64,000 nt of DNA, taken from contig NC_043020.1 in assembly GCF_006345805.1 (NCBI RefSeq), forward strand, positions 5,332,001 to 5,396,000. Direction: 5' to 3'. The notes below the pieces were generated by a model that was not told the DNA's origin, did not search any database, and worked only from the letters and a program-made list of their open reading frames with translations. Below, piece by piece: positions 45,497 to 48,400 of this stretch; positions within the stretch are counted from its first letter, which is position 1, and every line of letters starts with the position of its first letter. A program made the position numbers and the translations under genes. The stretch comes from Octopus sinensis. Its lineage: Eukaryota.

Positions 45497-48400
45497 GTAT
45501 TATGATTATTATTATTATTGTTATTATTTTGTTATATTTTTCGTTGTTATTTTGAATGTTTACACGGACCTTTCTTTCGAACAAAAACCCTTTGTACTTT
45601 TCGTCCTGTATTTGTCCTTAGATATTTCTTTGATTTATGTAAGCCCTTGTGACCAGTAAACCAGAATTAATTAATTATTATTATTATTATTACGCTCCGA
45701 GTCCAATTTTCCCCCCACCCAGGTCGACTTTGTCTTTAATCCTTTCAGGAGTCGATATAATAAGTACCAGATGAACATTGGTGTCGATGTAGTCGACTAG
45801 CTCCCTCTAAAAATTTCAGGTTTTGTGTCTGTATTCACCTCTTCTCCGATCTTGCCCCGATCAAGCTGACCGCTGATCAACGGTGCTTCTAACCATGACC
45901 TCTTCATTTCATTTTCTTTCGTAGCATATTTAAAAATACATTATCCGGCATAACAATATACATGTGTGTTTCCTACCACGGACTTCGTTTCATCATACAC
46001 ACACACACGAAATTATATATACAGAGTGTCCCCCAAAAATGTATACACATAGTGGTTCGGCAAAAGAGAACAATAGAATAAGTACTAGGCTTACAAAGAA
46101 TAACAAATTTACAATTATTTAAGGTGTGTATACAATTTTTTGGACACCCTGTATAATATATATATATATATATATATGTAGGTCCCGGTTGATTCGGGGT
46201 TAACCACAGTAAATAAGGTACTCAATACATAGCAGAGTAAAATTAATTATTATATAGAAGAGCTTCTACAGACTAGAACTGTTTCATTCAAGAGAAATCT
46301 TCAGGAAGCTAGTTAACAAAATTGTATTGGCATTTATACATTTAGGCAGGTTTAAAGGGGTGTTGGTGGGGACTTTTTGGGGGTAGGCATAGCGCAAAAT
46401 ATCATACTTGGGGGAGTGGTCAAGGAGTCCGTGTTAAATTAGATAGAAGAATTAAATAAAAAAATAAAAAAATCTATATAATAAAAAAAGGGGAATAGAG
46501 TTTTAGGTAAATAAGGAGATTCTCACTTATACCTATGCCACATTATACATACATACACACACATACAAAACATATATCCATATACATACACACACATATA
46601 TATACACTTACACATACATATACATATCTACACATACACATATATGTATACATACACACACTCACATGTATATATACACACACGACCACACATACATATA
46701 CGCACAGAAAAATATTATACACATACACACACATACTCACATACACGCATACACGCACATATCCACACCCACACATGCACACACCAGCACACTAGTCCTA
46801 TATACACATACACACACATATACACCACACACAATACATATACATACATGTATATATATATATATATAACATATGTGTACCTATGCATACCTACACATAC
46901 ACATATATATACACATACAAATACAGACCCATTCCCTAATTTTAATTTTATTATCTTCATTTATTACTTTTGTTATCTTTGGCCACTTGGTCACAAACAT
47001 CTTGGCTATGACAGCCAGTCATTTATCTGTCTACTGGAAAACAAGCACTCTTCACTCACGCACACTCTTTAGCACGTACACTCACTCATTCGTACACTCA
47101 TACACATACACGCACGCACGCGTTATATTCATACATACATACATCTACATACATTCACGTATATACACATACGTACGCGTACCTACAGATTCATGTCTAC
47201 ACTCTAGAAGGCTAGTCTATATATATACACCAATAAATATAAATACACACACATACATATACACCTACATACAAATACAACAGTAATATATATATATATA
47301 TATAATATATATATATATTCACATATATATACACATATATATACATATATATATACACACACATACGCATACACAACATATACACAATATACACACATAC
47401 ACATACATACATATACATACATACATACATATATATATACATGTATGTATATGTATGTGTGTGTGTGTATATGTGTGTGTATGTGTATATATGTGTATAT
47501 AGGGACTAGTGTGCTGTGTGTGCATGTGTGTGTGTGGATATGTGCGTGTATGCGTGTATGTGAGTATGTGTGTGTATGTGTATATATATTTTTCTTGCGT
47601 ATATGTATGTGTGGTCGTGTGTGTATATATACATGTGTGTATACGTGTATGCATGTGAGTGTGGTTATGTATACATATATGTGTATGTGTAGATATGTAT
47701 ATGTATGTGTAAGTGTATATATATGTATATATATGTGTGTGTATGTATGTGTGTATGTATATGTATATATGTTGTATGTGTGTGTATGTATGTATACATG
47801 TGTGCATAGGTATAAGTGAGAATCTCCTTATTTACCTAAAACTCTATTCCCCTTTTTTTTATATATAGATTTTTTATTTTTTAATTTTTTTATTATTCTT
47901 CTATCTAATTTAACATGACTCCTTGACCACTCCCCCAAGTATGATATTTTGCGCTATGCCTACCCTCAAAAAGTCCCCCACCAACACCCCTTTAAACCTG
48001 CCTAAATGTATAAATGCCAATACAATTCTTGTTAACTAGCTTCCTGAAGATTTCTCTTGAATGAAACAGTTCTAGTCCTGTAGAAGCTCCTTCTATATAA
48101 TAAATATATATATATATATATATATATATCAATAATAACAAAGGGTAAAATTAATTAATTAACTAGTTAATAATTTCACCAAGTAGAATTCGGCATGAAA
48201 AGGGACTATTTTTCGGTAAACTTAAGTAATATTTTATAATTAGGATTCAGCAAATATTTGCTTTACCACATACTGAAGTTTAGTAGAAATAGCAGCCAAA
48301 GAACCTTAGCTATTTCTTCTACTTTAAGAAGAGACTCCCGCACAAAACAAAGTACTCGAAAACAACCCACGCACTTTTTAAAGTAGAAGAAATAGCTAAG

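Follow-up and report, generated by a model that had tools for sequence, protein, structure and literature searches.

Inverted hammerhead motifs in intron 1 of octopus COMMD2 read as one insertion of a young Hydra-type Penelope-like retrotransposon

Intron 1 of the COMMD2 gene of Octopus sinensis carries two hammerhead ribozyme motifs in opposite orientation, one in each arm of an inverted repeat, which raises the question of whether the host gene makes use of them. The pair lies in a stretch of 64,000 nucleotides (contig NC_043020.1 of assembly GCF_006345805.1, positions 5,332,001 to 5,396,000 of the forward strand), hereafter the window, in which position 1 is the first base. A first-pass annotation had proposed a special self-silencing or editing-gated ribozyme cassette. 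We read the copy in the window instead as one insertion of a young Hydra-type Penelope-like retrotransposon, with the hammerheads as its outward-facing ends, and put the probability of our reading as a whole at roughly 0.7. The inverted ribozymes are likely an insertion by-product that is neutral for COMMD2.

The arms, previously placed near 46250-46870 and 47430-48103, are indeed inverted and somewhat longer than that: alignment of 46244-46888 with the reverse complement of 47403-48106 gives 709 columns, with 622 identities, 18 mismatches and 69 gap columns. The earlier picture of a symmetric pair stands insofar as each arm holds a hammerhead, but the left end alone carries a tail, the spacer of about 0.5 kb is part of the left arm, and loop III is one base short in the minus-strand motif. 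Both outer ends run into (TA)n, in agreement with the first-pass annotation. The window copy is without an open reading frame (ORF) and consists of a 1.2-kb tailed 3' end on the minus strand and a 0.7-kb untailed 3' end on the plus strand, placed head-to-head in (TA)n. Its parts are as follows, with +1 denoting the first base of stem I here and below.

46152-46177, no strand: left (TA)n target, the last 4 bases of which are common to the element end
46174-47400, minus strand: long arm, the 5'-truncated 3' end of a Hydra-type Penelope-like element (PLE), with 3' untranslated region (UTR), pseudo-long terminal repeat (pLTR), hammerhead and tail, colinear with the longer copies L031 and L072
within low-complexity sequence 47402-47442, minus strand: inner end of the long arm
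46174-46243, minus strand: tail, +69 to +141, in the long arm only, equal to the 5' UTR before the ORF in full-length copies
46261-46310, minus strand: type-I hammerhead motif, antisense to COMMD2, loop III one base short, site after 46267
46332-46338, minus strand: TATAAAT box about 29 nt before the putative start at 46310, facing COMMD2 exon 1 about 0.8 kb off, putatively functional
46889-47402, minus strand: spacer between the arms, 3' UTR of the long arm, with 96-97% matches in other copies
47403-48105, plus strand: short arm, a second 5'-truncated 3' end, tailless, ending at +68
48009-48015, plus strand: TATAAAT box at -29, putatively functional
48038-48088, plus strand: type-I hammerhead motif, sense to COMMD2, GUA site after 48082, with 48038 as the putative element transcription start
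48106-48129, no strand: right (TA)n target

An assembly or fold-back read artefact is hardly credible as the source of this layout, since the arms differ by 6 substitutions over 301 unique columns. They also differ by the tail and by a spacer of genuine element sequence, and the same layout occurs at 71 sampled loci and in the literature (PMC8557442, PMC3846280). The gap columns over the same 301 columns, 9 in the left arm versus 1 in the right, may be polishing errors and suggest that such errors occurred locally. Compared with the best 40 scored family copies, the right arm is 95-98% identical.

A descriptor of the full type-I hammerhead matched exactly twice in the 64 kb, with the core at 48044 on the plus strand and at 46304 on the minus strand, against a mean of 0.035 matches in 200 block-wise pair shuffles; a complete type-I hammerhead in each arm had been claimed before. 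The plus motif (48038-48088) comprises a stem I of 6 bp, CUGAAGA, a U, a 3-bp stem II with a 4-nt loop, a second U, GAAA, and stem III (ACAG/CUGU) with an 8-nt loop and the GUA site after 48082, while the minus motif (46310-46261) lacks one base of loop III. The type-I core (C3 U4 G5 A6 G8 A9 G12 A13 A14 A15.1 U16.1 H17) and three helices closing in stem I are all present.

The motif belongs to a large family. A 32-nt piece of it has at least 2,152 exact copies in the genome and its control has none, exact-pattern counts being lower bounds. Among the first 100 copies listed, neighbours within 10 kb were divergent in 33 cases, convergent in none and tandem in one. Longer copies have an endonuclease (EN) frame that runs in the same direction as the ribozyme (150 matches of this kind were scored) and the single ORF with reverse transcriptase (RT) and C-terminal GIY-YIG endonuclease that is the hallmark of EN+ Penelope-like elements. 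Locus L129 is a full copy, with an inverted piece with tail, a pLTR, an ORF of about 710 codons from +184 with one frameshift, a 3' UTR and a tailless pLTR; L116 has a 652-aa open frame with YRDDG and a YIG-type EN. The RT-EN protein has 1,419 relatives, the best with 43% identity over 99%; Pfam gave no RT or GIY-YIG match for the EN or the ORF. Other PLE hallmarks are also present, namely pLTRs from partial tandems, an inverted 5'-truncated copy, and a tail at one end (L129; 69 of 71 pairs). The earlier attribution of the hammerheads to inverted pLTRs of a PLE is borne out, and the copies next to a PLE RT/GIY-YIG ORF for which the first-pass annotation suggested a search are found in L116 and L129.

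The L129 frame has RWR at 38, DKT at 116 and no GxK[FY]. In the family protein the linker reads CNCPDKTTC (CxCx5C), and the EN has CDLC (CxxC) and CMH (CxH). Among 120 relatives, RW[KR] was found in 99 and DKT in 112. Assignment to Neptune or Nematis was dropped because CX2-5CxxC was not found in the family protein; CCHH was absent by eye from the place where we take it that this motif would lie. The Hydra clade is defined by RWK, the lack of GxKF/Y, a change of DKG to DKT, a CxCX5C linker, CxxC and CxH flanking the E and N of the EN, the lack of CCHH and CX2-5CxxC, and a (TA)n target (PMC8557442, section 11), and the family's copy ends run into (TA)n, matching that insertion target. Its unit of 5.0 kb in L129, with a 3' UTR of up to 3.4 kb elsewhere, exceeds the clade's <3 kb, which is a tendency in PMC8557442 and not a strict criterion. 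Assigned by its motifs, the family is a putative Hydra-clade PLE.

Further likenesses to this clade (Craig et al. 2021, PMC8557442), which includes Hydra-1_Obim of Octopus bimaculoides, extend from the C-terminal GIY-YIG EN, RW[K/R], DKT, CxCx5C, CxxC, CxH and (TA)n target to the ribozymes, which are of type I with T...T flanking stem II, an ACAG/CTGT-A stem III and a CTGA.GAT...TGAA core (File S2). In contrast, the unit is about 5-5.7 kb here and generally <3 kb in the published elements, the tail 73 nt and not 30-40, and loop III 8 nt and not the 1-3 of the Hydra rows, and stem II is only 3 bp here. The family is distinct from Hydra-1_oBim, whose ribozyme is unlike the one here, and three motifs of the window family are absent from the available part of the PMC8557442 supplement. 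An identical 1.8-kb master element was rejected because the inner junctions vary among pairs. Non-LTR retrozymes consist of tandem head-to-tail non-coding units, all with a ribozyme, whereas the window pair is inverted and only 1 of 34 close neighbours is in tandem. Retrozyme-like derivatives of the window family were seen at L158-L161 (C9 near 87.42 Mb) and on C16 near 42.876 Mb, in tandem and inverted arrays with units of about 420 nt and 245 nt; the units hold the tail and the ORF start, and those on C9 also the ribozyme. At L035:1264-2700 a family copy lies next to a different Penelope-like element, whose frames are broken and whose endonuclease is of the CxxC type.

Published work already covers Hydra elements along with their ribozymes, their inverted copies and the tail on one side. 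Recently active Penelope-like families have also been counted in an octopus annotation, the available part of which does not mention ribozymes (PMC13282606), and retrozymes have been tied to PLEs (bioRxiv 2026.07.22.740005). The family itself, the ribozyme fusions at the first base and the counted one-tail rule, both described below, appear unpublished within the literature searched, which left out subscription papers and Repbase.

As to the host gene, five exons of 67, 78, 83, 174 and 198 nt, all bounded by GT-AG, give 199 codons with no internal stop, and the last exon matches COMMD2 in the PDB (E 5e-16); these exons and this match to a solved COMMD2 place the element inside intron 1.

45430-45496, plus strand: COMMD2 coding exon 1
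45497-52104, plus strand: COMMD2 intron 1 (GT-AG), host of the insertion
52105-52182, plus strand: COMMD2 coding exon 2
55362-55444, 56946-57119 and 57237-57434, plus strand: further COMMD2 exons

The plus-strand hammerhead is therefore in the sense of COMMD2 pre-mRNA, as the first-pass annotation held. Its proposal that the antisense arm may sequester this motif is likewise supported by folding, in which the arm duplex reaches about -985 kcal/mol versus -7 kcal/mol for the ribozyme fold, and the predicted fold of the whole region pairs 48038-48088 with 46310-46261. Since a duplex of -876 kcal/mol is already available before the sense ribozyme is transcribed, the sense ribozyme in COMMD2 pre-mRNA would, according to these models, likely be trapped by the earlier antisense arm. 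Trapping of this kind follows from geometry and is common to every such insertion: whichever strand is read, a transcript that runs through a back-to-back pair would show it. The antisense arm would be missing from RNA that begins at the boxes of the element itself, at 48009 (plus) and 46338 (minus).

A host switch, in which the pair would serve as a self-silencing or editing-gated device able to cut COMMD2 intron 1, draws on this sense ribozyme and long predicted duplex. Yet the same layout is found at about half of the sampled loci (33 pairs among the first 100 matches) and is the default product of insertion of the family, so the cassette is unsupported. The copy is young, and its motif, the same as in 90 of 128 copies, is nothing special. 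Adenosine-to-inosine editing is high in coleoid cephalopods, but it would alter adenosines within the core (48047, 48050, 48064-48066), which, given what the core requires, would be expected to inactivate the ribozyme and not to free it, and makes gating-on unlikely. We consider such a switch very improbable; as a COMMD2 switch the pair is of little importance, and the locus itself is ordinary.

We compared 42 family copies that were not picked by ribozyme. Shared variants were present at 0 of 38 core or paired sites and at 25 of 129 sites of the upstream flank (p 0.0013 for 0/38 versus 25/129; a value of 0.014 was also obtained). Of the 13 free sites, which belong to N7, loop II and loop III, 3 had such variants. 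The farthest subfamily has a change in loop II alone. As ribozyme sites are invariant in copies, selection acts on the motif in source elements. The motif is conserved as a working ribozyme would be. Of the conservation and covariation that had been asked of the core, the former was found and the latter was not.

Almost all inserted copies derive from uncleaved RNA. This speaks for another explanation, in which the motif persists because a protein of the element binds its RNA structure, and cleavage in vivo is rare or absent. The predicted fold is weak: the hammerhead lies 1.2-1.8 kcal/mol above the minimum-energy fold, and isolated motifs fold no better than shuffles (z 0.10 and 0.24). Fusions near +45 number 13, of which only about 6 come to within 3 nt of the cut, whereas 383 lie at +1, and in an anole element cleavage needs protein and is dispensable for insertion in vitro (PMC11167929). 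Against a purely structural role, subfamilies vary at N7 and in loops II and III but at none of the catalytic bases; in one fusion the two arms begin exactly at the cut, and L140 restarts there. On balance we regard a merely bound structure as doubtful, though by no means far-fetched. The ribozyme would more likely serve the element through weak, dimer- or protein-assisted cleavage by way of its near-palindromic stem III, which together with its loop has a predicted self-dimer of -12.8 kcal/mol; other PLE ribozymes with a dimerising palindromic helix III cleave slowly (PMC6765202). The minimal metazoan PLE hammerheads and non-LTR retrozymes (Cervera and de la Pena 2014, PMC4209133) are similarly of type I, with a palindromic helix III and thousands of truncated copies, and include opposite-strand pairs 100-700 bp apart in Schistosoma. 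They differ in that helix III of the window family can close as a monomer (4 bp), and hundreds of zero-spacer palindromes fused at one base, as seen here, are not described in the available part of that paper. An extended stem I was considered as an activity switch and rejected, as its pairing is not kept in older subfamilies (by eye) and the ribozyme-helix probabilities were only 0.01-0.54 when folded with and without upstream sequence.

How the inverted layout arises can be read from the tails. The 3' ends of the family fall at +68 to +72 or at +141, both at TA-like sequence. Exactly one 73-nt tail was found in 69 of 71 inverted pairs, the other two being one two-tailed and one intermediate case (p 2e-18 against 50%), although some pairs of this sample were picked for length or junction type and L180 and L182 may be segmental duplicates. 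At subfamily-diagnostic sites the two arms were concordant in 31/32, 35/36, 37/37 and 64/66 cases. Together, the one-tail rule and the shared alleles point to asymmetric double priming. Two reverse transcriptases, one per nicked target strand, would prime at two fixed RNA sites, both using RNA from one source, and the complementary DNAs (cDNAs) would then be joined at their 3' ends. Longer arms such as those in the window would come from RNA reading uncleaved through the downstream pLTR, and ribozyme-ribozyme palindromes of about 205 bp would come from priming at the 5'-UTR copy of both sites and running off the cap.

The general PLE layout, an inverted 5'-truncated copy with a tail at one end, is the same. 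Work on the Poseidon element PAc of Anolis (Frangieh et al. 2024, PMC11167929) likewise found that RT starts at two sites beyond the ribozyme, on its downstream side, whose spacing defines the tail, and that both target strands are extended at an AT-rich target. Unlike those of PAc, which lie in the ORF, the start sites of the window family lie in the 5' UTR and resemble the (TA)n target, with possible annealing; one site is used per strand in 69 of 71 insertions here, whereas in vitro the two strands did not differ for PAc.

Fold-back self-priming of a single cDNA or of an antisense template, as argued for Adineta Penelopes (PMC3846280), would replace the two primings and explain both the identical alleles in the arms and the palindromes at junctions; the longer tailed arm of the window is also as predicted. 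However, the tailed arm must then always be longer, and among 36 longer pairs, judged by unique markers, the tailed arm was deeper in 14 and the untailed arm in 13, with 9 ties. As the tailed arm is not consistently deeper, this argues against simple fold-back from the tailed strand, and we find this origin quite improbable.

The double-priming reading assigns one end of the cDNAs to a cap, and the 5' boundaries of the copies bear on this. Fusions of two ribozymes no more than 30 nt from the stem I base occur at 383 loci. In only 10 of these do both arms continue upstream of +1, although a better palindrome is available on that side. Cleavage-site ends were rejected as a major class, since only 13 loci are fused near that site; by eye, about 6 of these come to within 3 nt of the cut, and in one both arms start exactly at it. 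Among 50 listed fusions, 30 are perfect AGCT palindromes. A hand count of the other 20 gives 19 arms that extend as far as +1; the cDNA base that follows is C in 16 of them, T in 2 and G in 1, and in none is it the genomic A. Genome-wide, 341 arms end at +1 and continue with C or G on the cDNA strand (C in 86 of the first 100, which reads as an extra G ahead of +1), and about 9 arms, read by hand, have a C explained by neither partner nor target. Sampled 5' ends lie at +1 to +3 in 19 of 178 cases, including the tandem restarts in L136, L139, L143 and L148, where the units begin again at +1 or +2. All 13 promoter rows compared, which come from 8 loci, have TATAAAT or CATAAAT beginning at -29, and this box is kept there in a subfamily with 87% ORF identity whose spacer from -22 to -1 has diverged. 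An extra G is a mark of cap copying in LINE-1 (PMC11702581, PMC4038843). From the pile-up at +1, the TATA box at -29 and the extra G we infer that the capped RNA starts at the first base of the ribozyme, where the pLTR promoter would start it.

In the Penelope of Drosophila virilis (PMC2377424; ribozyme PMC4209133), the promoter also lies in the pLTR of the upstream partner, with the ribozyme close behind the start. That promoter is TATA-less and internal, and an intron ends at helix I, in contrast to the TATA box at -29, the putative start at the first base of helix I and the lack of any spliced copy seen in the window family. A splice acceptor at +1, as in D. virilis, was rejected, since L076, the sole copy in which a deletion ends at that point, is not bounded by GT-AG, and full copies retain the upstream sequence. 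In 6 of 40 arms of imperfect fusions the end is at +2, followed by A and then C, as if the first templated base had been miscopied before the cap; a modification of the adenosine next to the cap might account for this, and so might simple untemplated addition. At L140:1416 an ORF-bearing unit restarts at the cleavage site (with 2-nt ambiguity), a possible copy of cleaved RNA.

The pile-up at +1 could also mark a stop of RT at the ribozyme, through protein-bound RNA or snap-back of the cDNA through stem I, with the AGCT palindrome joining cDNAs. The 30 perfect palindromes among the 50 listed fusions fit this, snap-back also adds C first, and one listed junction has 5 nt that fit snap-back; in a second hammerhead family, junctions lie along an extended stem I with no TATA box. 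A stall is however expected on entering a structure and not on leaving it, of the 10 loci that extend upstream only a few use the better palindrome there, and the TATA box is fixed at -29 across subfamilies about 13% apart. Three sampled arms end at +2 and then have C, which is impossible by snap-back, and none of 27 'CT+C' arms continues as snap-back for 5 nt. We therefore judge an RT stop unlikely and retain a capped start as the better reading of the pile-up.

A replication cycle like that of LTR elements would join these parts, with a ribozyme-defined R region, a cap at +1, a dimeric RT priming both strands, strong-stop cDNAs and transfer to the downstream pLTR. There would be two fixed priming sites in the 5' UTR, from which strong-stop cDNAs would run to the cap; transfer would go through the repeat of +1 to +45 left at the RNA 3' end by ribozyme cleavage, and the about 380 ribozyme-ribozyme palindromes would be failed transfers. 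If true, this would explain why there is one tail per insertion even with a tailless source 3' pLTR, and would give the PLE hammerhead a job. We offer the cycle tentatively and think it unlikely to be right, as a cap scar at -1 was found in 0 of 128 long copies.

Several observations weigh against our overall reading, in addition to the lower-bound counts, the possible duplicates and the motif-based clade assignment given above. The usual G10.1-C11.1 pair is absent, stem II being 3 A-U-rich pairs with U.U and then U-A, although the same U...U flank of stem II occurs in most Hydra rows of PMC8557442 File S2. The Rfam scan that the first-pass annotation had suggested found no hammerhead, at the gathering score or among 73 matches at E<=10 (Rfam miRNA matches in the window were microsatellite noise). 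No compensatory base-pair change was seen among family copies, so conservation could reflect a protein-binding or promoter element. Allele sharing between arms points to a common source but does not establish a common RNA molecule, and gene conversion may contribute to the sharing. The start site, cap and cleavage are all read from DNA scars; for 18 of the 27 'CT+C' arms, microhomology of 1 nt with the partner is an alternative reading, and the missing scar at -1 in long copies counts here as well. Finally, a generic search (386 matches versus 102 in the control) brought up the second type-I hammerhead family, in which the junctions of 97 short fused loci are scattered over an extended stem I and a TATA box at a fixed position is absent. 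Its palindromes without a sharp start indicate that a start site is not their sole route. Extension of the start-site pattern to this family was rejected, because it has the short palindromes but neither fixed TATA nor sharp start.

The family nevertheless offers a testable reading of PLE replication. Being young and of high copy number, it is a natural record of PLE insertion, a process in which the inverted structures and the function of the ribozyme have been named as open questions (PMC8557442, PMC11167929). Together with the TATA box and the extra G, the pile-up at +1 would place the ribozyme at the very 5' end of the capped RNA, where cutting would remove the cap. The family also strews hundreds of near-perfect 70-bp hairpins over the genome, which are possible substrates for ADAR or small RNAs.

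Some minor features were noted besides. The second hammerhead family (L200, L206, L211-L240) is of high copy number, lies in (TA)n and has a long stem II, tails and short head-to-head palindromes; a first look gave 1,751 candidates, and L229 has a Hydra-like endonuclease fragment nearby (E 1e-12). To the right of the element in the window, 48227-48458 is a separate 235-nt self-inverted repeat (81%) with relatives at other loci, resembling a miniature inverted-repeat transposable element (MITE). Directly left of the (TA)n target, 46015-46154 is a 140-nt palindromic element with short inverted ends, presumably a MITE of the Tc1/mariner type. On the minus strand, 37152-37706 and 28250-28705 are exon-like frames, coiled-coil and acidic in character, of a putative gene that is divergent from COMMD2; the former frame may resemble CEP63/deuterosome proteins.

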